A DNA stretch of 40,000 bases from Acerihabitans arboris (GTDB lineage Bacteria > Pseudomonadota > Gammaproteobacteria > Enterobacterales > Enterobacteriaceae). Each line of letters begins with the position of its first letter. The first letter of the stretch is position 1. Under the pieces are notes generated by a model, which did no database searches, was not told the DNA's origin, and saw only the letters and a list, made by a program, of their open reading frames with translations. Location: assembly GCF_010131535.1 (NCBI RefSeq), contig NZ_WUBS01000014.1, positions 93,216 through 133,215 of the forward strand, in the 5' to 3' direction. The position numbers were made by a program, and so were the translations under genes. This document shows positions 6,391-30,184 of this stretch, in pieces.

Positions 6391-6413
6391 ATTATCACCT
6401 GAGAGGGGGAACC

Positions 6414-6665: not shown

Positions 6666-6723
6666 ACAGGGGACGGCTGTCGTGCCCGGGCGCATGCAGC
6701 AAATTAACCATAGGGTTTTTTTA

Positions 6724-7194
6724 ATGTCAGAGCAAAATAGTACCGAGATGGCGTTCCAGATCCAGCGAATCTACACCAAGGACGTCTCTTTTGAAGCGCC
6801 GAACGCGCCGAAGGTTTTTCAACTGGAATGGCAGCCGGAGATCAAACTGGATCTGGATACCGCGTCCAGCCAGCTGGCAGACGGCATTTATGAAGTCGTG
6901 CTGCGGGTGACCGTCACCGCGTCTTTGGGCGAAGAAACCGCGTTTTTATGTGAAGTCCAGCAAGCGGGTATTTTTACCATTTCCGGCATCGACGGTACGC
7001 AAATGGCCCATTGCCTGGGCGCATACTGCCCGAATATCCTGTTCCCATATGCCCGTGAATGCATCACCAGCCAGGTTTCTCGCGGCACTTTCCCACAATT
7101 GAACCTGGCGCCGGTAAATTTTGACGCTTTGTTCATGAACTACCTGCAGCAGCAGTCGGAAAGCGAAGGAAGCCAACCGGCGCAGGAAGCCTGA
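6724..7194 (+). CDS. secB: Protein-export chaperone SecB
   Basis: From the ATG at 6724 the protein reads [29 protein letters not shown], colinear with E. coli SecB. The track ORF start at 6682 adds 14 non-homologous residues. Confidence 0.95.
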
Positions 7195-7196
7195 TC

Positions 7197-8213: not shown

Positions 8214-8256
8214 CACCGGTATGTCAGAAGATATCCATCCGCGGAAGGTAGTGAGT

Positions 8257-9072: not shown

Positions 9073-9085
9073 CCGGCGTTCCCGC

Positions 9086-9553
9086 CTAGGCGCGCGCGCC
9101 CTGGTACTCCAGCTGGCGCCAGGCTTCGTACACCACCACTGAAACGGCATTGGATAGATTCATGCTGCGGCTGCCGTATTGCATGGGAATGCGGATTTTA
9201 TGATCCGCAGGCAGGGTATCGAGGATAGCGGGCGGCAAGCCGCGCGTCTCCGGCCCAAACAGCAGATAATCCCCAGGCAGATAGCTCACCGCGCTGTGGG
9301 CGGCGCTGCCCTTGGTGGTCAGGGCAAACAGCCGCTGCGGCGCTTGCTCGGCCAGGAAAGCCCCATAATCATGGTGGCGCCTGATCTCGGCGAATTCATG
9401 GTAATCCAGGCCGGCGCGCCGCAGGCGCTTATCGTCCCAGGTAAATCCCAACGGCTCGATAAGGTGTAACTGAAAGCCGGTGTTGGCGCACAGGCGTATG
9501 ATATTGCCGGTATTTGGCGGGATTTCCGGTTCGAATAAAACGATGTGTAACAT
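9086..9553 (-). CDS. trmL: tRNA (cytidine/uridine-2'-O-)-methyltransferase TrmL (SpoU family)
   Basis: From the ATG at 9553 the protein reads [27 protein letters not shown]...[20 protein letters not shown], which matches E. coli TrmL (YibK). The track ORF (to 9745) carries a 64-residue spurious extension. Confidence 0.95.
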
Positions 9554-9629
9554 GGCGGCCCCCTTGACGAGGGCGCAGGATAACAAAAAAAACGACGGTA
9601 CGCCGCAACTCCCGGACGCTTGCCGAATG

Positions 9630-11027
9630 TTATTTGCTTTCGACGCCCGTCGCCTGCCGACGGTGCTGCAACGGCAGCCACATAACCAGCCGCAGCCCGC
9701 CCAGCGGGCTATCTTCCGCTTTAACCCATCCGTGATGTTGCTCAACCGCTTTTTCTACGATCGCCAGGCCGAGTCCCGAGCCGCCGGAGGCGCGATCGCG
9801 CGCTTCATCGGTACGATAGAACGGCCGGAAAATCTGCTCCCGGTCTTCAGCGCTGACGCCCGGCCCGTCGTCATCGACGGTGATGGTGACGCCGAGCTGA
9901 TCGGCGGTGAACGCCACCGATATCTGCTGGTTCGAGTAACGCAGGGCGTTACGCACGACATTTTCCAGTGCGCTGTCGAGCGCGGCGGGATTACACACCA
10001 GCATCCAGTTTTCGGGCGGGGCGGTGATTTGCAGGTTTTTGCCCATCTGCTCGGCTTCGAATTTGGCATCGTCCAACACATCGCTCCACAGATCGCTGGC
10101 CGTGACGTATTCGCGGGTTAACTCATTCTTATGCTGATTGCGTGACAGGACCAGCAAATCGTTAATCATGGAGTCCAGGCGCTGAGCTTCGGTTTCAATG
10201 CGGGCCAGCTCATGGCCTTCGCCATGCTTGCGCCGCATCAGGGCGGTAGCCAACTGCAAACGCGTCAGGGGGGTACGCAGCTCGTGGGAGATATCGGACA
10301 GCAGGCGTTGCTGCGCATTCACCATTCTTTCCAGGGCGCTGACCATTTGGTTAAAACTGACGCCGGTGGCTAAAAACTCCTGGGGGCCGGCTTCCAGCTC
10401 CGGATGCTGGCGTAAATTACCCCGGGCCACCTCATCGGCGGCATGTTTGAGCTTACGCGCCGGTTTCGCCAGGCTCCAGGCCAGCCAGAGCAACAGGGGA
10501 ATGCTGATAAGCATCGTGACAATCAGCAACAGCAGCGGCCGATCGAACATCAGGCTGATGAAGTCAGATTGTGAATTACCGGCGGGACGAATTTGATAAA
10601 GCTGATAGTTATCCTCCCCGTCGCGCACCGGGAACGGACCGACCAATTCCACGCGGCCATATTTTTTCTTTTGCGGATGGTCGGAGTTATCGGACTGGCC
10701 GATAAAGTTACGGATAACCTGCATTTCATTACGCTGGGCGCCGATAACCCGCCCCTCGCTGGTCACCAGTATCAAGCGTTGCCCAGGGGGTGCCCACTTA
10801 TCGATGGAGCGAAACAGCCGCCGCCACCACATCAGGTCGTTGGCCGGATCGCCGGCCAGCTCCGCTTCCACATGTTGTTGCAGCATGATGCCCTGGCGCT
10901 GTTCACTGTCGAGCAATGGCGTCAGCTGCCGTGAATCCAGCTTGGGCACCATCAGCACCAACATCAGCACCAACGCCAGGGTTAGCCAGAAAATGGCAAA
11001 AATCCTGGCGGTTAAGCTGTTTATCAT
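9630..11027 (-). CDS. cpxA: Envelope-stress sensor histidine kinase CpxA
   Basis: From the ATG at 11027 the protein reads [34 protein letters not shown], with an H-box [14 protein letters not shown] and a G-box [10 protein letters not shown]. It overlaps the cpxR stop by ATGA (11024-11027). Confidence 0.95.
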
Positions 11028-12601: not shown

Positions 12602-13585
12602 TTAAATGCTTAATTTTCCGTGCAACGGATTGAGATTTACGGCATTTTTCAAATAATCGGGCGCCAGGTGCGCATACGCCATGGTTTGCTGAATGCTCGC
12701 GTGCCCCAAAATTTGCTGTAATGCCACGATATTACCGCCGTTCATCATAAAATGACTGGCAAACGTATGCCGCAACACATGAGACGCCTGCCCTTTTGGT
12801 AGCGCTGGTTTTACCAAACGGAGCGTGTTACAGAACGCCTCATAATCCACCTTGAACAATCCTCCAAAATCTTGTTTTCTAATCTCCTGCTCAAGCTCAA
12901 CGGAGATCGGGATCATTCGATTTTTTCCATTCTTAGTATCAAGGAACGTAACCCGTCCATTTGCGACTTGTTCGGCCCTCAAGCTGCTCGCCTCGCCCCA
13001 GCGCGCCCCGGTGCTTAAGCAAAGCAACGCTAAACGCAGCGCATCCCCAGATAACACCTCAAGCAGTTTTTTGATTTCAGGCTTTGACAAAAAAGTCATG
13101 GCCGGCTGCTTTTCCGCCAGGGGCGGCAATCCTTTAAATGGATTGGGGCAATCCAGTACCTCCACCTTGATCAGCGCGGAGAACAGGCCGGAAATTCGGT
13201 AAATATCGCGGTTGATGGTAGCCGCGCTAATTCCCCCGATCAGTCGCTGGGTGCGATGCTCAAGGATAACGCGCTTATTCAACCGATTGATCTCTGGATC
13301 TCCAAATTGGATCACAGTCTTGTTTAATTGCCGTCGTTCAATGATGCCGTTTTTCAGATTCTGTCCATGGTATAGCCACCATAGTTCCAAAATTTCGCTA
13401 AGTTTCCGCCGCTCTATTCCTGCACCGCTTTGCCATTCCTTTTTACTCACATTTGCCAAGGTGTAGCGCTCAAATGCCACCGCCTCGCCTTTCTTTTCAA
13501 ACCGCCGCCGGATGCGTTTTCCATCGCGCCCGCCCAGCCTTATGTCCACTTCATATAGATCATCATCGAGCTTCTTAATTGACAT
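12602..13585 (-). CDS. int: Tyrosine integrase (P2/186 type)
   Basis: From the ATG at 13585, preceded by a GGAGGG SD, the protein reads MSIKKLDDDLYEVDIRLGGRDGKRIRRRFEKKGEAVAFERY. The C-terminal catalytic region contains HVLRHTFASHFMMNGG...LGHASIQQTMAYAH (R..HxxR..Y). The track start at 13630 is an extension. Confidence 0.9.
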   Translation of the reverse strand: MSIKKLDDDLYEVDIRLGGRDGKRIRRRFEKKGEAVAFERYTLANVSKKEWQSGAGIERRKLSEILELWWLYHGQNLKNGIIERRQLNKTVIQFGDPEINRLNKRVILEHRTQRLIGGISAATINRDIYRISGLFSALIKVEVLDCPNPFKGLPPLAEKQPAMTFLSKPEIKKLLEVLSGDALRLALLCLSTGARWGEASSLRAEQVANGRVTFLDTKNGKNRMIPISVELEQEIRKQDFGGLFKVDYEAFCNTLRLVKPALPKGQASHVLRHTFASHFMMNGGNIVALQQILGHASIQQTMAYAHLAPDYLKNAVNLNPLHGKLSI

Positions 13586-13651
13586 GATGAAGCCCTCCGA
13601 CATAACTATCATTTTGAAAATCAATATCAAAAAGGTAAATAATGTAAATGT

Positions 13652-17389: not shown

Positions 17390-17673
17390 GCGAATGCACG
17401 CCGGTAACTTTCGATAAATGGCTTGATCAGCCCTCGCAAAAACAATCAAAACTTTCTCGCCGAAAGACAATGAGTGCACGCGATATTGCAAAACACGAAA
17501 AGACGTGGCAGGACGCAGCGGCGGCGATGGATCTGTTATTGACCAGCGAGATAGCTGATTTTTCTGCTGGCTTGGGAAATCCCGGCGAGCCAGAAACTCC
17601 GGAGGCGATCCAGGACGAATTGATGCGCCGGACAGACCAGTGTTTTGCGGTGGTTCACGGCAAACGGAAATGA
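17386..17673 (+). CDS. Hypothetical protein (95 aa)
   Basis: Coupled by ATGA at both ends (17386 and 17670). No family recognised. Confidence 0.55.
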   Translation: MSECTPVTFDKWLDQPSQKQSKLSRRKTMSARDIAKHEKTWQDAAAAMDLLLTSEIADFSAGLGNPGEPETPEAIQDELMRRTDQCFAVVHGKRK

Positions 17674-20030
17674 CAGATATCAACAGGGGCCGTCGCGCCC
17701 CTTCTCCGCCGCCGCCTTTCCCTGGTAGTCATGAAAAAAACATCACTTGGCCGTATTGGTGGAACGCGCCGCGTCCAGCCGTACGCCCGCCAGAATTGCC
17801 AACGTATGCCGAGAAGCACGCCCTAGATCGTGATCATTATGAAATGTGCACGGCGATTAACCGCGCCTATGAAATGCTTGATCAGCAACCGGAATTTATC
17901 CGCCGGTCGGTCATGGGAACCATTACCAGCCTGGAACATACCAACGGTGCCAAGCGCGCAAACATGTACTTAACGAAAACTTTTGTTGAGCGCATATTTC
18001 CGCGTTTAGATCTGGTCAATGCCCAATACAGGTTGGAGGCGAGAACGCTGGATAACGTCAATTTATTCTGGAGTTTTAATAAATTGGCCGATCTGGGCCG
18101 CAAGGAAACCGATCATTTAGCCGAAGACATTGCGCAATTTATCGCCTTGGAGCTGGGTGTTATATCGGAGTCATCCGCCGCCGATAACCTGAACGATTTC
18201 AAAACCGCCCTAGCGATGTATCGCCGGGCCGCAGAGATCACCCGCGGATTTCGGCAACCCGTACCAACCAAAGGTAAAAAAAATCTCACACTGGAAGATA
18301 TGACGCCGGTGATCTCGCGCATGTTCTCGCCTAAGTGGTGGCAAAACCGCTTGCGCCGATACTCCGCCATGTGGCGCGAGCATTTGCGGATCGCTTTCGG
18401 TCAGGTAAGCAAAAAAGACACCCCTTATGCCAGTAAAAACGCGGTAGGCGACTGGCGGGAGCAGAAACGCCGTACCCGTGAATTTCTTAAGGGGATGGAG
18501 CTTGAGGACGAGGAAGGCAACCGCATATCGCTGATTGAAAAATTTGATCACAGCGTGGCCAATCCGGCGATACGACGCTGCGAATTAATGAATCGCATCC
18601 GGGGATTTGAAAATATCTGCGAGCAGCAAGGTTATGTCGGTGAGTTCTATACCATGACCGCGCCGTCCAAATACCACGCCACCAATAAACACGGCCACCG
18701 CAATCCGAAGTGGGAAGGGGCCAGCCCGGCCGATACCCAAAAATACTTGCGGCGGACCTGGGCGGCCATTCGTGCAAAGCTTGCCCGCGATGGCATCAGT
18801 ATTTTCGGCATTCGCGTAGCCGAACCGCACCATGATGCCACCCCACACTGGCATATGCTGATGTTTATGAAACCTGAGCATGTCGGCGCCGTCCGGGAAG
18901 TTATGCAGGGTTACGTAACAAAAGAGGACGAGCACGAATTAGTCAACGCCAGGGCAAGAAAAGCCCGTTTTTGCGTTGAGGCTATCGACCCGGAAAAAGG
19001 AAGCGCCACCGGGTACATCGCAAAGTATATTTCGAAAAATATCGACGGGTATGCCCTGGACGATGAAATTGACGACGAAACCAAAAAGCCGCTTAAAGAT
19101 GTGGCCGCGTCCGTATCTGCATGGGCGGCACGCTGGCGCATTCGTCAATTTCAATTCATTGGCGGCGCCCCAGTGACCGTTTATCGCGAGTTACGCATGA
19201 TGGCCGATCATGAGACCGCGATCGGGCTGAGTATTGAGTTTGCCGCCGTTCATGATGCTGCTGATTTCGGCCATTGGGATGAGTACGTCAACGCCCAGGG
19301 CGGCCCGTTTGTGCGCCGCGAGAACCTTATTGTTAGAAATTGGTATGAGACCAACGAAGCGCTATCCCCTTACGGTGAAGAAGTGATCCGCATACGTGGC
19401 GTTTACACCCCGTTAGTAGGCATAGATTGCCCGATTATCACCAGGGCAAAGCAGTGGAAAATTGTCCGGAAACAGGCCGTTGACCTTGGTCTTTCGGGGG
19501 TTGACCTTAAGGGCGCGCCTGCGCCCTCTCGGAGTTCTGTCAATAACTGTACGGGGCCGGGGATCGGCCCGCAGGATGACGGAACGGGATCGAGTATGGC
19601 TATGCCCTTGACTATTGCGGACTTCAAAGCCATGACCCGCAAAGAACGCCGCCGGGCGCTGAAAAGAATCAGGCAAGAAACGCGGGAACTTCGGGATGCG
19701 CGGCGGCCAGCGCGCGCTGATTTTGGTGTGGATCCTGAAATGGCGGCAAGGATGCGTGACGCGGCTAGGACCGCGCTCGGGTTCGAACTAAGCCTGGGCG
19801 AAATTAAATTCCTGCTATCCGGTCATGCCATGAAAATAGGCGATGAGTATTTCAGTGGGCGTAGCGATGGTGAAATTTATTCCGCAAAACCGCCAACCGA
19901 CCCCCTTAAACGGTTCGAAAAATTGAAACGTCGGTACGGGCCGCCGCCTGAGTCTGAACGTGCGGCTATTTTAAGGCAATATTTTGAAAACCTGAAACCA
20001 GAAGACGGTATCGATCACAGCCAGATTTAA
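17670..20030 (+). CDS. gpA: Replication initiation endonuclease, P2 gpA family (HUH rolling-circle nickase)
   Basis: 786 aa from the ATG at 17670, which forms an ATGA overlap with the upstream ORF. The HUH motif PHWHMLMF has codons H-W-H at 18846-18854. A paired-tyrosine motif, GYIAKYISKN, has Y-x3-Y at 19014-19028, as in P2 A and phiX174 A. Confidence 0.9.
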   Translation: MTDINRGRRAPSPPPPFPGSHEKNITWPYWWNAPRPAVRPPELPTYAEKHALDRDHYEMCTAINRAYEMLDQQPEFIRRSVMGTITSLEHTNGAKRANMYLTKTFVERIFPRLDLVNAQYRLEARTLDNVNLFWSFNKLADLGRKETDHLAEDIAQFIALELGVISESSAADNLNDFKTALAMYRRAAEITRGFRQPVPTKGKKNLTLEDMTPVISRMFSPKWWQNRLRRYSAMWREHLRIAFGQVSKKDTPYASKNAVGDWREQKRRTREFLKGMELEDEEGNRISLIEKFDHSVANPAIRRCELMNRIRGFENICEQQGYVGEFYTMTAPSKYHATNKHGHRNPKWEGASPADTQKYLRRTWAAIRAKLARDGISIFGIRVAEPHHDATPHWHMLMFMKPEHVGAVREVMQGYVTKEDEHELVNARARKARFCVEAIDPEKGSATGYIAKYISKNIDGYALDDEIDDETKKPLKDVAASVSAWAARWRIRQFQFIGGAPVTVYRELRMMADHETAIGLSIEFAAVHDAADFGHWDEYVNAQGGPFVRRENLIVRNWYETNEALSPYGEEVIRIRGVYTPLVGIDCPIITRAKQWKIVRKQAVDLGLSGVDLKGAPAPSRSSVNNCTGPGIGPQDDGTGSSMAMPLTIADFKAMTRKERRRALKRIRQETRELRDARRPARADFGVDPEMAARMRDAARTALGFELSLGEIKFLLSGHAMKIGDEYFSGRSDGEIYSAKPPTDPLKRFEKLKRRYGPPPESERAAILRQYFENLKPEDGIDHSQI

Positions 20031-20138
20031 CTATGCAGACCGGCAAACATAGACGGATTCGTCTGTGCTGGCCACCGAGTAGCACAGGCATAAATAGCTG
20101 TGCTGCAGCAAAGACAAGAATGACGATGGAGGTCCGAT

Positions 20139-20828
20139 ATGGGGTATTTGGGGAGCAAAGGCGGCAGCGGCGTGTATCAAAAAATTATCAGCATGATGCC
20201 CAGGCACCGGATTTACATTGAAGCGTTTCTCGGGGAGGGGGCAATCATCCGCAATAAGCCGGCGGCTGAAAAAAACATCGGCTTTGATTTAAACGTGGAC
20301 GCCTTGATTTTCGTGAGAAATGAACTTTATCAGGCCGGAATTGAATTTCAGGGTTATCAGACCGATAGTATGGCCTCGCTCCGCGACTGGAAGCGCGGGG
20401 AGGTATTCAACTGGCAGGACGTTTTAATCTATGCTGACCCGCCTTATTTGCTGGAAACGCGGACCAGCGCCGCCCGCTATCAGCATGAATATACTGAGCC
20501 GCAGCATCACGCCATGATTGACACGTTGCGGGCGCTGCCGGGCGCCAGGGTGATGATAAGCGGCTACCGGTCGGATCTCTATGATTCGCTTTTATCTGAC
20601 TGGCGCCGGGAGGACTTCCAGGCCATGACGCGCGGTGGCGTGAGAACGGAAAGCGTCTGGCTCAATTTTGATGAGTCGGCGCCGGCCTATAGCCACTCAT
20701 TCGCCGGGCGGGATTATAAAGAGCGCCAGCGGATAAAGCGTAAGGCCGAGCGGTGGGCGGAAAAATACCGAAATTTACCGGAGCGGGAAAGACTGGCAAT
20801 TATGTCGGAAATGATGAAGGAAAAATAA
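20139..20828 (+). CDS. Second N6-adenine DNA methyltransferase (DPPY class), orphan
   Basis: 229 aa, with GGAGG located 6 nt upstream. The N-terminus has YLGSKGG, and IYADPPY has DPPY at 20436-20447. The C-terminal tail is basic. No adjacent restriction endonuclease gene. Confidence 0.8.
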   Translation: MGYLGSKGGSGVYQKIISMMPRHRIYIEAFLGEGAIIRNKPAAEKNIGFDLNVDALIFVRNELYQAGIEFQGYQTDSMASLRDWKRGEVFNWQDVLIYADPPYLLETRTSAARYQHEYTEPQHHAMIDTLRALPGARVMISGYRSDLYDSLLSDWRREDFQAMTRGGVRTESVWLNFDESAPAYSHSFAGRDYKERQRIKRKAERWAEKYRNLPERERLAIMSEMMKEK

Positions 20829-20845
20829 ACCCGCCGGCGGCGGGT
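20829..20845. terminator. Short GC hairpin between the convergent MTase and ogr genes
   Basis: ACCCGCCG-g-CGGCGGGT, immediately after the MTase stop and touching the ogr stop. No long T-run on either side, so terminator function is uncertain. Confidence 0.4.
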
Positions 20846-21108
20846 TAGACGCGGCCTTGTAAAAGGTCCAGGGCCATTTGCCGATCTTTTGGCTGAATTA
20901 AATTGAGTAGCGACCTGACCAAACCGTTACCAGTTTTAGCGCTTGGGCTTATTGTATGGGAAAACGTGACGTTCAAAACAAAGCTATGGCTGCATTCCAC
21001 GTCACTGCACTGGCAATATAAATCGGATAGGTGGACGTCTTTGCGATTTGTTTTGCGAATATTGGCCGCTGATCCGCATTCCGGGCAAAAAACTTTCATT
21101 ACGCGCAT
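20845..21108 (-). CDS. ogr: Ogr/Delta-type zinc-finger late-gene transcription activator
   Basis: From the ATG at 21108, preceded by GGAGGG 5 nt upstream, the protein reads MRVMKVFCPECGSAANIRKTNRKDVHLSDLYCQCSDVEC. This has the C-x2-C...C-x-C-x4-C cysteine pattern of Ogr/Delta/B activators. Confidence 0.8.
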   Translation of the reverse strand: MRVMKVFCPECGSAANIRKTNRKDVHLSDLYCQCSDVECSHSFVLNVTFSHTISPSAKTGNGLVRSLLNLIQPKDRQMALDLLQGRV

Positions 21109-21773
21109 GATAACCCTCCACAAAACACCCGGTTATTTTAACACCACTTTATAAAAAATGGCTATATAAACGGGCTATCATCGAACTCCCCGGTTCGCAT
21201 ATCGTTCAGTACATAAGTGACGGCACCCCAGCAGACGATGCAGCCAACCTCGCTAAAACACACCAACTTGCTGGGGTAGTCCAACAGTTCCAGGCTGCGG
21301 GCCAGGTAAAGTTCAAAACGCTACATTTTAAACGCGCCAGCTATTTCTGCAATGATAATGCTGCCGTCTAGCGGCATAAGGGATCTATCTAAGATGAGCA
21401 GGGCACCCTGGAAAATCTCCTGGCGGTTAGAGCATTCCCCTATGCGGGTGAAGAACGTCGCGGCGCCACTGGGATGTGTAGCACGTCCAGGCAGAGGCTT
21501 TGCTCAATTTAGGTTTGTACGGGTATAGGAAAACCCATTTTCGTCACCTAATGTCTGTAATTATATACAGTTAAGGATGTTGGGTTGAACTTTGGAGCTG
21601 AGAACAGTATAGGGGACGGACACTCGTAGGACATTGAGTCTAAAACAAATTTTATCCTTTTTATTCTCCAATAATCGCGTTAGGCAAGAAAATTCTAACA
21701 GCTATAAATTGCTTACTTTTTTTTTAAAAAAAGCATATTAATGATATGTGTTTTTTCATGTTAGGTGTCAATT

Positions 21774-22331
21774 ATGGCAAATCCAAGTTCGATAAGCAGA
21801 AGGTTGAATTCATTTTTTGGGGCATTACAGCATAATGATTTTGAAAACGCTTTTATTCATTATTTCCCAGCCTTAGATAAAACGGCAAAGCTCAGAAGGC
21901 CAAAGGAAAACGTATCTAAAAGAATAAAAGCATTTCTTACAGAAGAAGAAAAATTGCTATCCTTCATTGCGTTGGGTGGTTTTGTTGTGGGAAATACATT
22001 CAATGGTGTTTCTGTTATTGATGCATTATATAAATACGGAAGGACATCGATAGCACATGAAGGTGAACTAGATAAGAGATTGTCAGTGCAAGAGGGAAGA
22101 GGGGTATCATTCGGGGATGAATTTATTCTTGATAAAAAATATCTCAGTGCATTAGGAATCATTGTGATCCTTTCACCTGAAAATATTGGAGAACATTTAG
22201 AAGGAAATTATAATTTATACCTTATTGATAAATATATAAATGTAAATTCCTTGTGGGGTAGAAAGGAAGATGTTATTAAAAAAATAATTTCATTAGGTAT
22301 TAATGAAGAGACAATTAGATATTACCCATAA
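21774..22331 (+). CDS. AT-rich stand-alone cargo ORF with an R-x4-H (HEPN-like) motif; candidate abortive-infection/defence protein
   Basis: 185 aa from the ATG at 21774, with AGGTG 6 nt upstream; the GTG at 21765 would give 188 aa. The motif YGRTSIAHEGEL has Arg at 22041-22043 and His at 22056-22058. The ORF is visibly far more AT-rich than the flanking phage genes. It has its own upstream non-coding leader and a downstream hairpin. The family assignment is an inference. Confidence 0.5.
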   Translation: MANPSSISRRLNSFFGALQHNDFENAFIHYFPALDKTAKLRRPKENVSKRIKAFLTEEEKLLSFIALGGFVVGNTFNGVSVIDALYKYGRTSIAHEGELDKRLSVQEGRGVSFGDEFILDKKYLSALGIIVILSPENIGEHLEGNYNLYLIDKYINVNSLWGRKEDVIKKIISLGINEETIRYYP

Positions 22332-22338
22332 ATTATAA

Positions 22339-22394
22339 TTAAGATTTTAGTGTGTGGCCGCCACAAATTTTGGTGGCCACAATAATAATCTTAA
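22339..22394. terminator. Bidirectional stem-loop between convergent cargo genes
   Basis: TTAAGATT (22339-22346) pairs with AATCTTAA (22387-22394), and TGTGGCC (22353-22359) pairs with GGCCACA (22375-22381). The internal loop contains a GTGGCCAC palindrome. Confidence 0.5.
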
Positions 22395-22420
22395 GCGAGC
22401 TTTTTTGATGTTACTTTGAT

Positions 22421-23242
22421 TTAGCTGAATCTTGCATTGTTTAGCTCGTAATCAGCCGCTAACACTTCATTTGGCATCAAGTCTATGTTGCTCAGGATAT
22501 CGAGTCTCACACGGTAAAAGGCGCCACTGAACGCTGCAGCATATCCCCCATCAGTGCCTACATAATGACTTGTGGGCGGAAAGGTCGGCAGGGTTGCAGG
22601 GTAAGTCTGAGTGCTCGATGTGTAAACAAGCACGCCATCGAGGTAAACGTAAAACACAAAAGATGTGCCGTCGTCTGCAACTTTGCATCGAACAGCAATT
22701 TGATGCACCCCTCCGCCCATCATGCCGTTTAAAACAGTTCCAACTGAAAGATCTACGCCCAATACCACAATTTGCGTGCGTGCCAGCGTAGTTAAATCAC
22801 CAGCCGCTGCTACCAGGCGGATTTCGCAAATCTTTTCCGATGCTGTCGTGCGGGAACTGCCTACAAGAAAAATATTGTTGTTAGTACTGGTGTTTCCCAC
22901 CTGGTTGATTTTCAGCCAAATTGTGTACATCCAGTCTTTATCAGTTAAGGCCGGAACGGCTACGGCTGGCAATTGGAATTGACTACCCGACGCGCCCGCC
23001 CATAGCATGCCCCCATTTGCATAAGTGTGCGCTTTTGCAAACACGCCTACAGAATTTTCGTATGACAGGCTTTTTATCTGCGAGCCAGCAACGACATTTT
23101 TTTTGCCGCCACTCCAAGTGATACCGCAGTCGAACGGGCCAATAGTTCCCGCGTTCATCGTGGAGTCACGATAGAGTTTCTCGCCGGTGTCAATAGTGAC
23201 ACCGGTTAACTGTTCTATTTTTCCAGCCATTATTGAACCCAT
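22421..23242 (-). CDS. LamG / concanavalin-A-like lectin-fold protein (putative carbohydrate-binding)
   Basis: 273 aa. Segments such as NNIFLVGSS...EIRLVAAAGDL...HQIAVRCKVADDGTSFVFYVYLDGVLVYTS look like a Laminin-G_3 beta-sandwich. An alternative start at 23230 gives a TAATG overlap with the upstream ORF. Confidence 0.55.
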   Translation of the reverse strand: MGSIMAGKIEQLTGVTIDTGEKLYRDSTMNAGTIGPFDCGITWSGGKKNVVAGSQIKSLSYENSVGVFAKAHTYANGGMLWAGASGSQFQLPAVAVPALTDKDWMYTIWLKINQVGNTSTNNNIFLVGSSRTTASEKICEIRLVAAAGDLTTLARTQIVVLGVDLSVGTVLNGMMGGGVHQIAVRCKVADDGTSFVFYVYLDGVLVYTSSTQTYPATLPTFPPTSHYVGTDGGYAAAFSGAFYRVRLDILSNIDLMPNEVLAADYELNNARFS

Positions 23243-25188
23243 CCTTTATTTTTCATAAATTGATATACGAACTCTGCATTCACTTCTGCGCCAACATAAA
23301 GCGCGTAAGCGGGCGCCATTGAACTGGATTTAGCCTGTGATGGATGGAGATAGTCATAACGAAGCGAGCGTGGTGTAACGCCGTTTCCGACATCTGTCAC
23401 ATCGTCCACATAGTCAGGATTATAATGATTGATAAAGTTTTGCAGCATATCAATGCCATTAATCTGGCAGTATTCCTGCGGAAATTTTCGCTTATATGCT
23501 GCGTTGAGTTTATTTACGTTACTAGCGCCAGCACTACCAGCTGTATCTGATGCCCCTGGAAAGTCGGGAAGGATCACTACTCGTTTACCCACATTCTTCA
23601 GATGCTTAATCATATTGATGGTGTTGTTAATAATCTCATCCGTGTAATTTATATTGTTTCTGCCCAACCAAAATATATTTATACATTGGTCGTTGTCATA
23701 ATAAACGGTTCCTGCCGGCGCACCATTGGGGACGGGTTGAGTCGTTTTTGGGATCACTTTTATTGGTGTCATTTCAGATACTGTTACCGCATTACCGGCC
23801 GCCGTCCTGGTAAATATCGGTGCCGCCCCGTTCCATGTGAACGTCCCGGCAACGCCCGCGTATGTGCACGCGATGCTATTTGATTCAGCCGGGTTATAAA
23901 GGAAACATGGGCCTTGCGCCCATTGCCCAGCTTTCGCAGTTAACGGCACATCCTGAATATCGGCAGGTATCACCCCTGACGTCGGTACATAATACGCAGG
24001 GTCGCCACCCTGGCGCGCCGCTATCGCAACAGACCGAGCAGAACTGCGACCAAAATTGTATGCATACAGGCCAGTTAACTCAACAAGCCGATTCATCATG
24101 CGGGCGTTTTCCATCATGGAATGGCCCCAACCGACCAGCTTTGAACGAGCGATATACGGATAGGGAGTCAATATAGATTTCTCGGCGTAGAACAGGCCAC
24201 CTGGTGCGTTATCGGCGCGGTCGGACACCCAAACAACCCTATGAGTCCCGTCGATGCGAGGGTTTGACTCGTTCGAATCTCCGGATGTTAGAGAGGTTTC
24301 GGTATTATCATCAGTGTTGTAAACCCGAATCTGTGATTTTCCCGCACTGTCGATGATAGTAAAAGGGGCTAACGGGTTAGTCTCGACCGTTGGAATGGTT
24401 TGCGACGCAGCATACGCCTCATCCCACAGGCTCTTTTTCTTTAGCCATTCCGTGATATCGAATAGCTTATTTCTTTCGGCATCAATAAGTACCGAGGGGT
24501 TGTTGTTGAGTTCGAATTCACCTGATGACTCTATGAATTTAGATGCACCCGATAGAATATTGATATTTTCCGATGTTTCGGCATCAGGTAGGGATGACAA
24601 ATCAACTGCCTCGCCATTGGCTGTTAATTTATCCACGGATAATTCTTTAAACTCAGTGGGGATGAGTACTTTCTTATAGCCATTGCGAGCTATCTCAACA
24701 ATGTTATTTTCATTGTCAATTTGCATTTGTTGCACGCTACCGAAAAGCTCATACTCTCCATCAGGTTCAAATTTAGATTGATCAATATAAGTTACCTGTT
24801 CATTTAGTGGCACAATATTAGCCACGCTGGCCGCCACTATATCAACAGCCGCAGCGCTAGGGTACTGAACCTGTGTTACGCCATCTGCGCGATAAACAGG
24901 GGCCGCCGCGCCATTATAGTTAAAAAATTCATTAACCCGCACTTTATCAGCACTGGTCCAAACATGGAAAATTTGGCCGTTCACCGTGGCGGCAAGTCCT
25001 TCAGGAGCAGAATTAAACGCGTTTTCAAAATTGAGTTGTTTTCGAAGATTAGAAATAGAACCTCTTCCCGTTGTATAAGCATCATCAGCAGGTGAAGAAA
25101 TAGGCAAGATGTCCGCGTCATTCAAAATAGTATTAGGATCAAGCTCGGAAATCCGCTTCCCATTAGGGACGTTTGACGTGTCCGTCAT
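23230..25188 (-). CDS. Tail-fibre/tailspike-like protein with a C-terminal SGNH/GDSL-type esterase domain
   Basis: 652 aa. The N-terminus KRISELDPNTILNDADILPISS resembles receptor-binding-protein N-termini. The SGNH blocks are GWGHS357 (Ser codon at 24120-24118), FG380RSS, WLGRN511N and YD612YLH615PS. It starts 2 nt after the portal stop. Confidence 0.6.
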   Translation of the reverse strand: MTDTSNVPNGKRISELDPNTILNDADILPISSPADDAYTTGRGSISNLRKQLNFENAFNSAPEGLAATVNGQIFHVWTSADKVRVNEFFNYNGAAAPVYRADGVTQVQYPSAAAVDIVAASVANIVPLNEQVTYIDQSKFEPDGEYELFGSVQQMQIDNENNIVEIARNGYKKVLIPTEFKELSVDKLTANGEAVDLSSLPDAETSENINILSGASKFIESSGEFELNNNPSVLIDAERNKLFDITEWLKKKSLWDEAYAASQTIPTVETNPLAPFTIIDSAGKSQIRVYNTDDNTETSLTSGDSNESNPRIDGTHRVVWVSDRADNAPGGLFYAEKSILTPYPYIARSKLVGWGHSMMENARMMNRLVELTGLYAYNFGRSSARSVAIAARQGGDPAYYVPTSGVIPADIQDVPLTAKAGQWAQGPCFLYNPAESNSIACTYAGVAGTFTWNGAAPIFTRTAAGNAVTVSEMTPIKVIPKTTQPVPNGAPAGTVYYDNDQCINIFWLGRNNINYTDEIINNTINMIKHLKNVGKRVVILPDFPGASDTAGSAGASNVNKLNAAYKRKFPQEYCQINGIDMLQNFINHYNPDYVDDVTDVGNGVTPRSLRYDYLHPSQAKSSSMAPAYALYVGAEVNAEFVYQFMKNKGWVQ

Positions 25189-25190
25189 AA

Positions 25191-26237
25191 TTAAGCGCCT
25201 CCAGTCGGCGTCGGGGGGATGATATTGAAATTAAGGTGCAGCGCCGCGGGGATTTCAGGGTCGCCGTTGACGGTGGCCATAAACCGCCGTTGGATAGGGA
25301 TCACCTCGTCCTGGCGGTAGGTGTCGCGCCATTTTGTCGGGTCGCCCAGGCCAGCCGTATTTTGTGGAATGATGCCGGCCAGGCCCGCCGGAAACCGGTG
25401 TGCATTGAGAACGTCTTGGGCGGAAATATTTTTGACGTTGGCAAATTCGTCTTTCGCGCTGATATCGCCCACCGGGATAAACTGCACGCCTTTTTCCTTG
25501 CCGTTGGGGATGTTGATATACAGATTTTTGAAATTGCCGATCCCCTTGCTGCCCTGGATTTTCTTTTTGATTTCCTCTTCCAGCTCGGCGGACATATTGG
25601 GATCGGTGGTGTAGAGGATGCCCCCCATATGCGCGCCGTTGGCATAATAGCGGCGGCGGAATACCACGGCCTCACTGTTGAGTAACGCCGAGTTGATGCC
25701 GCCGATATAGTCGGGCAGGCCATAGACCTGTTGCTGCGGATCGTACTGCGTGAGGAAACGGATATCCTGGGACTGATAAACCAGGGGTTCATCTTTTTGT
25801 AGGATGACAAATTCGCCGGTTTTCCGGCGCCGCAGGTACAGCGACGGCAGAGCATATAAACCGACCACGCGCCCCCACCGATCGCGGATCTTCAGTATGG
25901 CCACGTCACCAAACGTCAGGTAATCAAACACCGCCGCGTTAATGGCGGCGTGCGTCAGTCCGCCGGCATCATAGTCTGACGTGACCATATTACGGCGGGC
26001 ATACAGGATGCCTGAATGCTGCGGGCTGGCGTTGGCCAGGCGCGCCAGGGCCAGGCGGCTGATAGGGAGCGTCCACTGATCATAGGAATTGTCGTACCAA
26101 ACCTCTTGATAATCGGTGCCGGTCGTCAGGACCAGCTCAGGCGGCCCAAAAAATATTGTGCTGTTGCCGCCGGGCAACAATGTTGCCGGGACGTCGGTGG
26201 CCGGCGCGTTGTAATTCCGCCGTTTTTTTCTACTCAT
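25191..26237 (-). CDS. gpQ: Portal protein (P2 gpQ family)
   Basis: 348 aa with an ATGA overlap to the terminase gene upstream. Its size and its position divergent from the scaffold/capsid genes match P2 Q-P. Confidence 0.85.
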   Translation of the reverse strand: MSRKKRRNYNAPATDVPATLLPGGNSTIFFGPPELVLTTGTDYQEVWYDNSYDQWTLPISRLALARLANASPQHSGILYARRNMVTSDYDAGGLTHAAINAAVFDYLTFGDVAILKIRDRWGRVVGLYALPSLYLRRRKTGEFVILQKDEPLVYQSQDIRFLTQYDPQQQVYGLPDYIGGINSALLNSEAVVFRRRYYANGAHMGGILYTTDPNMSAELEEEIKKKIQGSKGIGNFKNLYINIPNGKEKGVQFIPVGDISAKDEFANVKNISAQDVLNAHRFPAGLAGIIPQNTAGLGDPTKWRDTYRQDEVIPIQRRFMATVNGDPEIPAALHLNFNIIPPTPTGGA

Positions 26238-28036
26238 GCGGCCCTCTCAAAAAACCAAGTTGATTTACGCTGCGTGTCAAAATTCAGCGGTTCGTGGATG
26301 ACTGCATGCGAAATCGCGAAAAATTCATCGGCGTGGCCGGTTTCGGCGCTGCGCTCCGCGACGAAAGTCAACGCGTTGCCGCTGGCGGTGGACGTACGAC
26401 GGATGGCCAGAAAAGACGCGGCGATGCTTTTATTCTCGGCGTCCCATTCGATGCGGTCGGCTTCGACCGTATCAATCATTTTCATGACCAGATTATTTTT
26501 AGTCTCGGTGCTGTAGTGGATGTCTCTGACCTCGCGTGGCGCGGCAATCTGAAGGCGCTCGAAAACCCCGCGCCCGATGCCGGTCACGTCAACGCCGACA
26601 TAGGTCATGCGGTACTTGGCCATGATTTTAATGATCTGGTCGGCCTGGTATTTAAAATTCATGCCGTTCCAGCGGTAGGTCTCCAATACGCGAAACCGTT
26701 CGCCCTCAAGCGTTGGCGGTGCCACCACAACAAACGTCGACGTGTCGCCGGTGCGCGCCGGGTCAAATCCGCCCCAGACCTCACGCTCGCCAAACGGCCG
26801 CCTATCGCTGGCCTTGAAATCCTGCCAGGTAGCCGGGTCGACTTCGCAGCGCACCAACATATCGAAGCGGAAAACACTATCGCCGCTGTCGATGAAGACG
26901 CACATATACAGCAGATTGAACGCGTCCGGGCTGTGCTCGTCTTTGATGCGCTGGAAGGTGACATATTTACTGAGGCCGCCGGCGCACGCGTCGGCCAGGG
27001 TGATGACATAACGCCACTGGCCGTCCGGACACATTCGCCCGCCGTCGCGCATTTCATCAAAATCAGGGAATTTTTCAGCCAGGCGTTTTTTATCTTTGCC
27101 GGCCCATTCTTTGCCGGTCCAGAACGGGTAAGCGTCATGGGTTTTTGCGCTGGGTGTCGAAAAATAGGTGCGACGGAATTTGTCGTGTGTGGCCATGGCG
27201 CCGGCCACGTCTTTAAAAAGCTGAAACTTAGGCACCCAGAAATATTCATCACAGTACAAGTGGCCGGTTTCGCCCTGGGCTGTGTTTTTATTGGTGGATA
27301 GGAATATCAGGCTGGCGCCATTACTTAACACGATGGGGGTGCCGGTAAGCGTTACGCCGAAAAGCTCTTGCGCGAATTTGACGATATAGCGTCGGAATAT
27401 CTCGGACTGGCGTTTAGACGCCGAAACAAATATCTGGTTGTCGCCGGTTAAGCAGGCGTTTTCCAATGCCTCAAACGCGAAATACCAGGTCATGCCGACC
27501 TGTCGGGATTTGAGGATGTTACGTATAGCAAGATGTAAGTTGGCCCGGCAGATTTTCTGATATTCAAATAAGCTATTTTCGGCAAATTCTGCAAACTTTT
27601 CCGCCGGCATTAGGCTGACATCATTTTTAACCCGCTTGCCGAGCTTGGCGGGTTTTTCATCTTCACCGGCCGCCATGAAACCGACGCCGCCGGGCGCGCC
27701 GCCGTTGCCACCCGCGCCATGGCCAATAGCCGCCATTTTTTCGGCGTGCTTACTGCGCTGCACCAATAATTTAACGTGGTGCTCGATCAGCCGGTCGATC
27801 TCATCTAATTCCAGCGAGGTCTTGTTATCGCGTTTAACCAACACATTGATACGTCGGGTAATGCAATCCTCGACGCTTTCCTCTGTCAGCAATGATCCCC
27901 AATTGCCTTTTTTAACCCACGTGTAAATCACCCGAACAGAATTCAGGTTTAATTTTTTCGCAATCTCCGCCGGAGTATACCTTTGCAGATATAGCCGGGC
28001 GGCTGCGTCTTTTATTTCATCAGGATAAGTCGCCAT
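26234..28036 (-). CDS. gpP: Terminase large (ATPase) subunit (P2 gpP family)
   Basis: 600 aa with an N-terminal HTH-like region, then a Walker-type region and a nuclease domain. It is divergent from gpO, as in P2. Confidence 0.85.
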   Translation of the reverse strand: MATYPDEIKDAAARLYLQRYTPAEIAKKLNLNSVRVIYTWVKKGNWGSLLTEESVEDCITRRINVLVKRDNKTSLELDEIDRLIEHHVKLLVQRSKHAEKMAAIGHGAGGNGGAPGGVGFMAAGEDEKPAKLGKRVKNDVSLMPAEKFAEFAENSLFEYQKICRANLHLAIRNILKSRQVGMTWYFAFEALENACLTGDNQIFVSASKRQSEIFRRYIVKFAQELFGVTLTGTPIVLSNGASLIFLSTNKNTAQGETGHLYCDEYFWVPKFQLFKDVAGAMATHDKFRRTYFSTPSAKTHDAYPFWTGKEWAGKDKKRLAEKFPDFDEMRDGGRMCPDGQWRYVITLADACAGGLSKYVTFQRIKDEHSPDAFNLLYMCVFIDSGDSVFRFDMLVRCEVDPATWQDFKASDRRPFGEREVWGGFDPARTGDTSTFVVVAPPTLEGERFRVLETYRWNGMNFKYQADQIIKIMAKYRMTYVGVDVTGIGRGVFERLQIAAPREVRDIHYSTETKNNLVMKMIDTVEADRIEWDAENKSIAASFLAIRRTSTASGNALTFVAERSAETGHADEFFAISHAVIHEPLNFDTQRKSTWFFERAA

Positions 28037-28177: not shown

Positions 28178-29110
28178 ATGAAACCTTTATCAGTCGAGAT
28201 TAATGATATGCCGGGACAAGCTTCGCAATTAATGACGGACTTTATCCGCATCGCGACAGAAGGTCAGACCGTGGACGGTCGAAATATACCGGCGCAGTGG
28301 TTAACGGATATGGCCGCGACCTATGACCCCGCTTTATACACCGCCTTGATTTGGCCGGAGCATGAACGGTGGTGGGGAAATTTCGGCGAAGTGCTCGAAT
28401 TAAAAGCTGAGCCGGTTGATGGGCTGATGCGATTATTTGCCCGCCTGCGCCCGTCGATTGAACTGATGAATCAGAACGCCCGCGGGCAGTTACTGTTTTC
28501 CTCTATCGAACCCACACCGACCGGGAATTTTCGCGGCTCAGGTAAATGTTATCTGGAAGGTTTGGGCGTCACGGACTCACCGGCCAGCGTCGGCACGGAT
28601 CGCATAAGATTCAGTGCGGAAAAGAATAACGTCGTATGCGGCAATCTGGAACCCTTTTTTATTAACAATGTCACCGATCTGCCTGGAGATAAAAACATGT
28701 CGGACGAAACAAAACCGAATTGGCGCAGCCTGTTTGGCCTCAAACCGAAAGAAGAACCGGCCACGGTTGTAATACCGCCGGCAGCATCGGAAAAACCATT
28801 TTCAGCAACCCCGGACCAACTGACGCAATTAGCTCAGGCGGTTGCCGATCTTGAGGACCGATTCTCTATCGTTGAATCGTCTTTATTGGAAACCGTCGGC
28901 GCGTCCAATGACGCCAAAAAAGCCGTGGCGGAAGTGCGAACCGCCGTGGATGAAATCAATGCGCAGTTCAGGCGCCCGGAAGCAAAAGAGCTTTTTGAAA
29001 AGCTGCCTGATCTGATGCAGAAGTTTGCCAAGTTGGACGAGGTGATCACAAAGCTGCCGTCAGGCGCGCCGGCCACAGCACCGGAAAATATTAAACTCAC
29101 GATCGTTTAA
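28178..29110 (+). CDS. gpO: Capsid scaffolding protein (P2 gpO family)
   Basis: 310 aa. The segments FIRIATEGQTVDGRNI and GKCYLEGLGVTDSPASVGTD are colinear with P2 gpO as I recall it. The start could instead be the ATG at 28208. Confidence 0.85.
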   Translation: MKPLSVEINDMPGQASQLMTDFIRIATEGQTVDGRNIPAQWLTDMAATYDPALYTALIWPEHERWWGNFGEVLELKAEPVDGLMRLFARLRPSIELMNQNARGQLLFSSIEPTPTGNFRGSGKCYLEGLGVTDSPASVGTDRIRFSAEKNNVVCGNLEPFFINNVTDLPGDKNMSDETKPNWRSLFGLKPKEEPATVVIPPAASEKPFSATPDQLTQLAQAVADLEDRFSIVESSLLETVGASNDAKKAVAEVRTAVDEINAQFRRPEAKELFEKLPDLMQKFAKLDEVITKLPSGAPATAPENIKLTIV

Positions 29111-29164: not shown

Positions 29165-30184
29165 ATGCCATTTCTAAATGAACGTGCCCGCGAGGCCATG
29201 ACGCAATATACGCTCGCACTGCATGCCGCAGTGGGTGGGGTGCCGGGAAATTCGCCGGCCGACGCCTATTTTGCTCTAACGCCTCCCATGGAGCAGGCGT
29301 TACGCCAGGTCCTGCTGGAAAGTATCGATTTTCTGGGGATGGTGACATCATCCGATGTAGATCAGATGCAGGGTCAAGTGGTGGATGTGGGCGCCTCCGC
29401 GCTATTCACTGGTCGCAAAGCCGCCGGGCGCTTTATTCGTCCGATCACCGTTGATGGGAATCAGTACGCCCTGAAAGAAACGGATTCCGGCGTCGCGCTG
29501 CCCTGGGATCTGCTGTCCATTTGGGCCAATGCCGGCGGCAATGAACAGTTTATGCAATTGGTCAACGCTTTTACCACTCAGGCGTTTGCGCTGGATATGC
29601 TGCGTATCGGCTGGAACGGCACCAGTGCGGCCGCAACGACCGACTACACGACTAACCCGCTCGGCGAGGATGTCAATAAAGGCTGGCACCAGATTGCCAA
29701 GGAATTCAATGGTGGGGCGCAAATTATCTCAACTGCGGTAACGCTCGGCGCCGGCGGTGATTATGTATCGCTCGATGCCATGGCCGCCGATCTCATTAAC
29801 ACCAAAATTCCGGCGGAGTTCCGTGATGATCCTCGTCTTACTGTCCTGGTGGGTGCTGATTTGGTGGCCGCTGAGCAATTCCGCCTGTATCAGGCCGCCG
29901 ACAAGCCGACGGAAAAAATCGCGGCGCAACTATTGGCGAATTCTATTGCCGGCCGAAAAGCCATCATTCCGCCGTTTATGCCTGGCAAACGCCTGGTAGT
30001 CACCATCCCGGCTAACCTGCAAATTCTGACCCAACGTAATACCCGCCAACGCAAGGTTGAGTTTGTGGAAGACCGCAAGCAGTACGAAAACAAGTACCTG
30101 CGCAATGAAGGGTACGCATTGGGTTATCGCGAACTTTATGCGGCCATTGATGAAAGCGCGGTAACTATCGGCACCGGCGAGTAA
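29165..30184 (+). CDS. gpN: Major capsid protein (P2 gpN family)
   Basis: 339 aa. It contains IGWNGTS and GAGGDYVSLDAMAADLIN, similar to P2 gpN (GFNG and GGDYASLDALVMD). It follows the scaffold gene. Confidence 0.85.
   Translation: MPFLNERAREAMTQYTLALHAAVGGVPGNSPADAYFALTPPMEQALRQVLLESIDFLGMVTSSDVDQMQGQVVDVGASALFTGRKAAGRFIRPITVDGNQYALKETDSGVALPWDLLSIWANAGGNEQFMQLVNAFTTQAFALDMLRIGWNGTSAAATTDYTTNPLGEDVNKGWHQIAKEFNGGAQIISTAVTLGAGGDYVSLDAMAADLINTKIPAEFRDDPRLTVLVGADLVAAEQFRLYQAADKPTEKIAAQLLANSIAGRKAIIPPFMPGKRLVVTIPANLQILTQRNTRQRKVEFVEDRKQYENKYLRNEGYALGYRELYAAIDESAVTIGTGE

Follow-up and report, generated by a model that had tools for sequence, protein, structure and literature searches.

What is a small, AT-rich gene doing on its own between the replication gene and the late genes of a P2-like prophage of Acerihabitans arboris? 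The question is raised by a window of 40,000 nucleotides (NCBI RefSeq assembly GCF_010131535.1, contig NZ_WUBS01000014.1, positions 93,216 to 133,215 of the forward strand). By window we mean this whole stretch of DNA, and all coordinates given below are counted from its first nucleotide. An open reading frame (ORF) on the plus strand of the window, at 21765-22331, had been described in an earlier note, made from the sequence alone, as a candidate single-gene anti-phage or abortive-infection module whose product contains the R-x4-H motif of HEPN ribonucleases (RNases). In this study, we show that the ORF belongs to a widespread protein family, PF27329 ('Rv1289'), in which the Arg and the His of this motif are almost invariant. 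By analogy with known solo HEPN defences, the protein would be a stand-alone HEPN-type abortive-infection effector, i.e. an RNase that is expressed in the lysogen and activated by a trigger; we give this reading a probability of about 0.45. The ORF is a good candidate for a one-gene anti-phage defence, a role suggested by its genomic context.

The ORF may be read from two start codons. A GTG at 21765 gives a product of 188 amino acids (aa), an ATG at 21774 a product of 185 aa (coding sequence 21774..22331, plus strand, stop codon included). The 185-aa form is the likelier product, because direct reading of the sequence reveals an AGGTG Shine-Dalgarno ribosome-binding site (21763..21767, plus strand) 6 nt 5' of the ATG. 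Residues are numbered from this ATG; R90 and H95 correspond to Arg93 and His98 of the earlier note, which counted from the GTG. The translation quoted there is present in the ORF list and contains the motif GRTSIAHEGELD, and the codon positions given for the two residues proved exact (Arg, AGG, 22041-22043; His, CAT, 22056-22058). The protein is identical (100%) to a hypothetical A. arboris protein tagged PF27329, and its membership of this family is taken from the precomputed tag of the identical database protein (P0001).

As had been noticed before, the gene stands by itself. The 650 bp on its left, which reach to an Ogr-like gene, contain no credible gene, only ORFs of 40 and 58 aa without family match, and a gap of 89 bp follows on its right. 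It is convergent with the late operon, since the next gene (22421-23242) lies on the minus strand. The GC content of the ORF is 0.32 as compared to 0.51 in its flanks; in a composition profile it amounts to 0.31-0.35 over approximately 21600-22400 versus 0.47-0.59 in the neighbouring genes, which bears out what had been judged by eye. Leader, gene and downstream hairpin form an AT-rich block of approximately 860 bp (21540..22400; GC 0.31-0.41 versus about 0.5 on both sides), which is likely the unit of horizontal acquisition. The contrast between gene and flank is repeated in nearly all other loci of the family: across about 50 loci the homologue is nearly always more AT-rich than its flanks, by approximately 2 to 19 points, and is equal in a few and higher in one. 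As far as composition can tell, this fits horizontal mobility, as had been supposed for the window gene.

PF27329 is named after Rv1289 of Mycobacterium tuberculosis. All 237 word-indexed homologues (about 180 aa, 41-51% identity to the window protein) carry the PF27329 tag, and an exhaustive profile search (E <= 1e-3) places the family at 579 clusters at 50% identity. The source names of its members are 'hypothetical' or 'uncharacterised' throughout, without any function name, and the few papers that mention Rv1289 list it solely as an unknown or horizontally acquired gene. Conservation was assessed in 76 diverse members, which are 19-42% identical to the window protein. Y86 and G162 are conserved in all 76, R90 and H95 in 75 each, N137 in 71 and W161 in 65; position 96 is E or D in 67. 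Among 82 closer members the R and the H are invariant. The family signature Y86-K-Y-G-R90-T-S-I-A-H95-E-G-E-L-D100 (22029..22073, plus strand) thus encloses the candidate catalytic R-x4-H motif (22041-22058, plus strand), and the conservation expected of its two residues in the earlier note is borne out. A second conserved pair lies further upstream in D35-K-T-A-K39 (21876..21890, plus strand), where most of the 76 members keep an acidic residue at position 35 (D in 67, E in 2) and a basic one at position 39 (K in 56, R in 6). By sequence comparison the ORF is conserved beyond chance, because the family comprises hundreds of conserved protein clusters and both R and H are retained in 75 of 76 diverse members.

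Entropy by segment places the most conserved parts in predicted helix 2 (residues 23-41) and in helix 3 with the motif (residues 81-100), and these are the segments described as most conserved in HEPN domains. Variability is highest in the last third of the protein, which corresponds to residues 134-185 (22173..22331, plus strand), a predicted alpha/beta extension beyond the four-helix core that nevertheless holds N137, W161 and G162, and which may serve as a surface for sensing or regulation. The length of the protein is confined to 173-201 aa in 49 distinct loci. Some longer members exist: P0223 (540 aa) has a C-terminal extension including a transmembrane segment, and P0121 and P0056 (287 and 299 aa) are fused to an FKBP/trigger-factor-like peptidyl-prolyl isomerase domain. 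No tandem duplication was found in the longer fusion members, and their extra domains may be gene-calling fusions.

How well does this protein agree with what defines a HEPN domain? HEPN domains are four-helix up-down bundles with an insert between helices 2 and 3. Their R-x4-6-H motif lies where helix 3, often distorted at this point, terminates, the Arg is followed by a polar residue, mostly N, D or H, and a second acidic residue lies in helix 2, typically as E-x3-[KR] (PMC3710099). The AlphaFold model of the full-length protein is confident (predicted local distance difference test, pLDDT, 90.2; predicted template modelling score, pTM, 0.87), as is that of the core alone (pLDDT 94.4). Predicted elements are helices 6-19, 23-41 and 47-67, the last being the insert, a small hairpin and helix 81-94, followed by a beta hairpin (103-119), a helix (121-133) and the alpha/beta tail; the N-terminal half is therefore helical in the model, as the earlier note had read from the translation. 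The succession of these elements would fit that of a HEPN bundle. In the full-length model the motif helix runs from 81 to 89, breaks at R90 and resumes from 91 to 94, with H95 as the first residue past the helix; in the core-only model helix 81-96 is continuous, without a break. Four hallmarks are accordingly seen: the R-x4-H motif is present and, in the models, lies where helix 3 ends, predicted helix 2 bears an acidic-x3-basic pair, and an insert parts helix 2 from helix 3. The D-x3-K pair formed by D35 and K39 is the candidate equivalent of E-x3-[KR], with an Asp rather than a Glu as the acidic residue. PF27329 carries the sequence hallmarks of HEPN proteins, and from the predicted helices we infer the fold itself.

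Structure searches with Foldseek against the PDB point in the same direction. They gave 49 weak matches at E <= 10, of which at least 17 are HEPN proteins by name, including AbiV (9bj5-7), 4nqf, TM0613 (1o3u), AF0298 (2hsb) and sacsin (3o10). The HEPN share rises to 20 of the 49 when 2q00/2jpu, assigned to HEPN-T in PMC3710099, is counted. 2q00 ranks first with the full-length as well as with the core model (core: probability 0.87, E = 0.24).

Several results weigh against this reading. None of the Foldseek matches to HEPN structures is significant (E 0.24 or worse): the best lie at E 0.24-0.8 with template modelling (TM) scores of 0.39-0.46, below the usual threshold for a shared fold. Searching the PDB with sequence profiles from two alignments yielded nothing but designed helical repeats and ribosomal protein S20, and comparison by hhalign with a profile of AbiU2, derived from a neighbour of the Rhizobacter homologue, gave a probability of 0.2%. 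Pfam, searched with the window protein and the 76 members using a library without the PF27329 model, gave no link to HEPN; PADLOC, searched with the same proteins, gave no match to a defence family, and NCBIfam gave nothing meaningful for the window protein. The Pfam name of the family carries no HEPN label. The residue after R90 is C in 49 of 76 members, N in 16, T in 7 (and in the window protein) and S in 2; N, T or S are found in only a third, and the canonical RN is a minority. Concerning context and expression, no promoter-like site was detected on the plus strand in a scan upstream of the ORF, several chromosomal homologues lie among housekeeping genes and not in defence islands, and the family of the window protein was not found in 50,697 sequenced phage records (INPHARED) and 72,556 plasmids (PLSDB). 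The HEPN identity claimed in the earlier note therefore stands in part. Conservation of R and H, several hallmarks, the motif at helix 3's end and the first rank of HEPN structures speak for it; a significant profile or fold link was not obtained, and the Pfam and PADLOC searches that it had proposed were negative.

Trimming the model to the four-helix core left the HEPN matches non-significant, and Foldseek against BFVD found at best two uncharacterised phage proteins. PHROGs gave nothing useful for the window protein; for the 76 diverse members the family libraries returned scattered chance matches and a distant PHROG of unknown function in five of them (phrog_18591, alignment A3, best E = 2.3e-06). 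Sequenced phage genomes therefore do contain remote relatives, though the window protein itself finds none.

Alternatively, the family may be a helical protein of another fold. In such a protein the conserved Y/R/H/E cluster would bind a ligand or a metal or serve another enzymatic or regulatory function, and the ORF would be a lysogenic-conversion or accessory gene. Besides the missing significant match by sequence, profile or fold and the bare Pfam name 'Rv1289', two features are atypical of HEPN, namely the H-E-G-E-L-D stretch with its conserved acid directly after the His and the Cys that is commonest after the Arg. Moreover, N137, W161 and G162 are conserved outside the four-helix core. 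We nevertheless regard this explanation as unlikely. It leaves to coincidence four independent hallmarks (R-x4-H itself, its place where helix 3 ends, the acidic-x3-basic pair of helix 2 and the insert that separates this helix from helix 3) and a set of weak structural matches dominated by HEPN proteins in spite of the small fraction of the PDB that these make up. Moreover, sequence searches that start from one HEPN family notoriously fail to find the others (PMC3710099).

The reading as a HEPN-type defence effector draws further on the location of the gene. The prophage in the window is P2-like, as recognised before, with an integrase (12602-13630, minus strand), the replication gene gpA (17640-20030, plus), an Ogr/Delta-type gene, portal Q (25191-26237, minus), terminase P (26234-28036, minus), gpO (28178-29110, plus) and gpN (29165-30184, plus), identified in Pfam and PHROG scans. 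The ORF lies within the gpA-portal interval, as stated in the earlier note, yet two late genes separate it from portal Q. This interval is a published defence hotspot of P2-like phages (PMC9122126; PMC13586616). We examined it in 64 IMG/VR contigs that encode a gpA 52-65% identical to that of the window and a recognisable portal. The interval spans 1.1 to 6.4 kb, and 143 ORFs from it match 444 PADLOC families, including RmrT, AriA (PARIS), PtuA (Septu) and AbiLi. Because it is variable and rich in PADLOC matches, the slot is a real defence hotspot in related phages, in agreement with the earlier note, and by position the ORF is cargo of the P2 gpA-gpQ defence hotspot. As to whether relatives of the ORF occupy the same locus in other P2-like prophages, none of the 64 contigs carries a relative of the ORF, of the Ogr gene or of the two late genes in the interval.

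Elsewhere, the family is patchily distributed. When one genome of each species was scanned for a pattern, 28 loci emerged, which belong to Gammaproteobacteria, Nitrospirota, Planctomycetota, Bacteroidota, Campylobacterota, Desulfobacterota, Acidobacteriota and Myxococcota; E. coli genomes gave no match at the DNA level. Across the 49 distinct loci the upstream gap has a median of 214 bp and the downstream gap one of 100 bp, and none of the neighbouring genes recurs. The absence of a partner gene, asserted in the earlier note, is most evident in integrons, where the homologue is the only ORF of its cassette in two arrays from two phyla, one in a Flavihumibacter metagenome-assembled genome (L043) and one in Marinobacter (L054). 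An ORF was regarded as a cassette when attC sites with an RYYYAAC-type inverse core and a GTTRRRY-type core lay on both its sides. In the Flavihumibacter array the ORF begins 9 nt after the attC core site GTTAGGC, and GCCTAAC...GTTATAA follows directly after its stop codon. In the Marinobacter array GTTAGGG precedes the homologue and CCCTAAC...GTTATAG comes after it, the next attC overlapping the stop codon. In these cassettes the core site is 9-25 nt from the start codon and the next attC 0-4 nt from the stop codon. The upstream core sites fit GTTRRRY; downstream, GTTATAA, GTTATAG and CCCTAAC each deviate from the consensus by one base. Five attC repeats of 95 nt with 78-100% identity make up the first array (479-3179 of its locus), at least nine attC-like repeats the second (700-10450), and each cassette in both arrays consists of one small ORF. 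Two further loci (L035 and L040) also show repeated attC-like ends. The cassettes with the homologue measure approximately 630-650 bp. With a single ORF in so little space there is no room for a protein or RNA partner, which counts against an RNA antitoxin in the manner of AbiV.

These cassettes also bear on the possibility that the protein is a HEPN-type RNase with a role other than anti-phage, as a stress or dormancy toxin or as a selfish stabiliser of integron arrays and prophages. Integron HEPN domains have been hypothesised to induce dormancy under stress (PMC3710099), the family does occur in integron cassettes, and several of its chromosomal copies sit among housekeeping genes without defence neighbours. 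An addiction toxin, however, needs an antidote, for which single-ORF cassettes of this size are too small. The recurrent use of prophage accessory slots and of the P2 hotspot is typical of defence or exclusion genes, and anti-phage activity was found in approximately 18% of tested V. cholerae cassettes of unknown function. On balance we consider a role outside defence improbable.

Prophages carry the family as well, the lambdoid ones with the homologue counter-oriented between lysis and packaging genes. In IMG/VR 18 loci carry a homologue, which in most of them is counter-oriented between the lysis cassette (endolysin, Rz spanin) and HNH/terminase genes or placed beside gtr glycosyltransferase morons; in one locus (L018) it adjoins P2-type terminase, scaffold and capsid genes. 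Three loci have it next to gtr-type glycosyltransferases (phrog_1579, phrog_854) between lysis and packaging genes (L020 3369-5883, L025 3882-5911, L029 3899-5880), the PHROG matches having been made for L020 and the other two assigned by ORF layout. Such glycosyltransferase genes are typical serotype-conversion morons. In a Pantoea agglomerans prophage the homologue lies between the gene for the small terminase subunit and an Acb2/Tad1-type gene; in a record of the same prophage (L001, the prophage of L016), this gene of the Acb2/Tad1-hairpin family (91 aa, 8598-8873) stands back to back with it. The family comprises sponges that act against CBASS and Thoeris defences. In this prophage, therefore, a putative defence gene and a counter-defence gene share one accessory-gene slot. 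Two further settings may be added. In Rhizobacter (L009 3590-4393 and 11936-12548) the homologue sits in a run of small unknown genes on the same strand, among them one for a HEPN_AbiU2 protein and a RelE/MqsA-like pair, so that the run resembles an islet of defence or toxin genes. In Shewanella metallivivens the 7-nt unit TGCTAGG is repeated perfectly in tandem, in approximately 10 copies (L060 5468-5539), about 450 bp upstream of the homologue; this array could be a phase-variable tract.

Might the protein instead serve lytic growth, as a phage counter-defence or host-takeover protein? The Pantoea neighbour from the anti-CBASS/anti-Thoeris sponge family and the many prophage homologues near lysis genes could be taken in this sense. 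We hold it for very unlikely, because in 13 of the 41 loci with both neighbours, and in most lambdoid loci, the homologue runs counter to the lytic operons on its flanks, the arrangement of an accessory gene expressed in the lysogen. Homologues are also present in integron cassettes and at phage-free chromosomal sites, and the sequenced phage genomes lack the family.

The DNA around the ORF was examined for further components. The upstream intergenic region (21124..21773; composition profile, promoter, repeat and Rfam scans) has a backbone-like GC content of 0.47-0.49 in its left part, up to approximately 21540, and is AT-rich in its right part, which should hold the ORF's own promoter. No tandem repeats and no Rfam match were detected in its 650 bp, and a comparison with the phage collection found no similarity. 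Downstream, the convergent genes are separated by a two-tier inverted repeat (22339..22394), with TTTTTT after it at 22407-22412. The repeat folds with a free energy of -27 kcal/mol (z = -4.8), and none of 200 shuffled sequences folds as well; the stem-loop reported in the earlier note is real. Its inner stem was picked up by a terminator scan, and it is probably a bidirectional terminator. It was also considered as an integron attC site and rejected, because the RYYYAAC/GTTRRRY core sites, as read against the attC sites of the Flavihumibacter and Marinobacter loci, are missing. A GTTAGGC at 21679-21685, 89 nt 5' of the ATG, is identical to the core site that precedes the Flavihumibacter homologue. 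It is expected by chance approximately 0.6 times in the 650-bp gap, no matching inverse core site was found after the ORF, and it is probably a coincidence.

The same results speak against an RNA antitoxin, other than perhaps a very small unrecognised one, or a riboswitch in the upstream gap, given the lack of repeats, of an Rfam match and of similarity in the phage collection, and the lack of room in the integron copies. The notion of an AbiV-like type III toxin with a small RNA antitoxin in the upstream region or around the downstream hairpin, for which one might cite AbiV as one of the closest structural matches with a similar size and motif (R91/H97 versus R90/H95) and the approximately 296-nt upstream non-coding RNA that AbiV needs beside the long gap and strong hairpin of the window, is the least credible of all, as no upstream repeats or Rfam match were found, the cassettes leave only 9-25 nt before the start and 0-4 nt after the stop, many prophages have an upstream gap of no more than about 200 bp, and in the phage collection the upstream region shows no conservation.

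If the protein is a HEPN-type defence effector, we would picture its action as follows. The ORF would have been acquired horizontally, as an AT-rich single-gene module, into the variable gpA-portal slot and would be transcribed from its own promoter in the lysogen. The protein would consist of a four-helix RNase domain whose active site is formed by R90 and H95 at the end of helix 3, aided by D35 and K39 on helix 2. By analogy with solo HEPN defences such as HepS, it would wait in the cell as an inactive oligomer until a product of an infecting phage switches it on. The activated protein would then cut tRNA or rRNA independently of metal ions, whereby translation would stop and the infection be aborted. 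Recognition of the trigger would be likeliest in the variable C-terminal third; the conserved core and the variable C-terminal third would fit a division between catalysis and sensing as in HepS.

Extended to the family as a whole, the proposal becomes somewhat more tentative than for the window protein. PF27329 would be an unrecognised family of solo HEPN-like abortive-infection nucleases with a catalytic core and a C-terminal sensor, encoded by a partner-free module of approximately 0.65-0.9 kb that moves among the P2 hotspot, a lambdoid post-lysis slot and integron cassettes in at least eight phyla. Were this true, a widespread protein family so far without a function would receive one, and a compact, one-gene system of 185 aa would be added to the solo HEPN defences, among which HepS is the only one understood mechanistically. 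It would also mean that the P2 hotspot, lambdoid prophage slots and integron cassettes draw on one shared pool of defence genes. The conserved residues Y86, R90, H95, D35, K39, N137, W161 and G162 are ready-made targets for mutants, and the variable C-terminus provides a testable idea of trigger recognition. Should the fold not be HEPN, a confident model without significant structural neighbour and a near-invariant R/H/E site would mark an enzyme family worth solving.

The genes that border the slot have some features of their own. On the left (17640..21123), gpA is directly followed by an orphan adenine methyltransferase of the D12 class (20139-20828, plus strand; PHROG match, with a Pfam match over the C-terminal part only) and, on the opposite strand inside the gpA-portal interval, by the Ogr/Delta zinc-finger late activator (20845-21123, minus; Pfam). 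Among 80 related P2-like contigs only two share the methyltransferase and none has an Ogr gene at the same position. The right boundary (22421..26237, minus strand; ORF list, Pfam and PHROG) is the late operon with a 273-aa protein, a 652-aa protein and portal Q, downstream of terminase P. The two late genes (22421-25188) follow portal Q on the minus strand with overlapping or abutting ends. The 273-aa protein (22421-23242, minus) matches phrog_19357, of unknown function, and no relatives of it were found in IMG/VR. The 652-aa protein (23230-25188, minus) is tail-fibre-like: its C-terminal half matches tail-fibre PHROGs, and SGNH-esterase-like motifs (GWGHSM, DYLHPS) can be made out by eye. 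A tail-fibre-type module downstream of Q and P is unusual compared with P2 itself.

Among the known systems, the slot itself invites comparison with the tin/old position of P2. Both are the same slot of a P2-like prophage, with cargo mostly on the gpA strand, and the position is hypervariable and rich in defence genes (PMC9122126, PMC13586616). The tin and old genes have no sequence relation to the ORF, and the slot of the ORF differs in its borders, with Ogr and the methyltransferase on the left and two tail-fibre-type late genes on the right.

The nearest functional parallel is HepS (STM14_3211) of the Salmonella prophage Gifsy-1, a solo HEPN abortive-infection protein with R100/H105 and known structures (PDB 9OIJ/9OIK). 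HepS is not toxic when overexpressed; its resting state is an inactive tetramer whose active sites are buried, the phage tail-tip protein J opens it, and it then cuts tRNA anticodon loops, and its homologues are often prophage-borne (PMC13043305). As a published solo prophage HEPN activated by a tail-tip protein, it makes outdated the remark in the earlier note that regulation without a partner would be unusual. HepS and the ORF are both single small prophage genes in an accessory-gene slot, with no partner or inhibitor gene and with an R-x4-H motif near residue 100 (R100/H105 and R90/H95). They differ in that no relation of sequence or fold was detected, 9OIJ/9OIK being absent from the PDB profile search and from two Foldseek runs, and in that HepS lies in the replication-antirepressor region of a lambdoid prophage whereas the ORF lies in the P2 gpA-portal interval. 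In the LT2 Gifsy-1 record no gene matching HepS was found.

AbiV of Lactococcus is a HEPN RNase and type III toxin with the RNA antitoxin abiV2, which requires an upstream non-coding RNA of approximately 296 nt (10.1101/2024.05.05.592566; PDB 9bj5-9bj7). It resembles the ORF product in size (201 versus 185 aa), in its motif (91-RNHKSKH-97 versus 90-RTSIAH-95) and in an architecture of four core helices, additional helices and a beta hairpin, as predicted for the ORF product, and it recurs among the weak Foldseek matches. PF27329, in contrast to AbiV with its upstream RNA, is the sole content of cassettes with almost no flank; the Foldseek matches to AbiV lie at E 2 or worse and are lost from the core-only search, and PADLOC gave no AbiV match. 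Proteins of the HEPN-T group (PaREP1/8 2q00, AF0298 2hsb, TM0613 1o3u; PMC3710099) have an up-down helical bundle like that predicted for the window protein and are its best structural matches with the full-length and the core model. They are, however, about 120 aa long, usually paired with a nucleotidyltransferase, and in several of them the R or the H is missing, whereas PF27329 proteins have 185 aa with a C-terminal alpha/beta extension, keep both residues and have no nucleotidyltransferase neighbour; TM scores are 0.38-0.46.

Small stand-alone proteins of HEPN type are known from integron cassettes too. One of them (PDB 3jrt; PMC3710099) parallels the single-ORF cassettes of PF27329 and was not recovered by the PDB profile or Foldseek searches. 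Another is Esos, a single-gene HEPN-like defence of the V. cholerae chromosomal integron that is protective and causes growth arrest, in a cassette population enriched in defence genes (10.1101/2024.07.02.601686). Esos shares with PF27329 its small size, its stand-alone nature and its cassette. PF27329 is probably not Esos, because no V. cholerae protein is among the best 120 relatives of a Vibrio member, the comparison being made via the relatives of this member only. As far as sequence and Foldseek searches tell, PF27329 is none of the families of HepS, AbiV, AbiU2 or 3jrt, and it is probably a further family of small stand-alone HEPN-type effectors carried on mobile elements.

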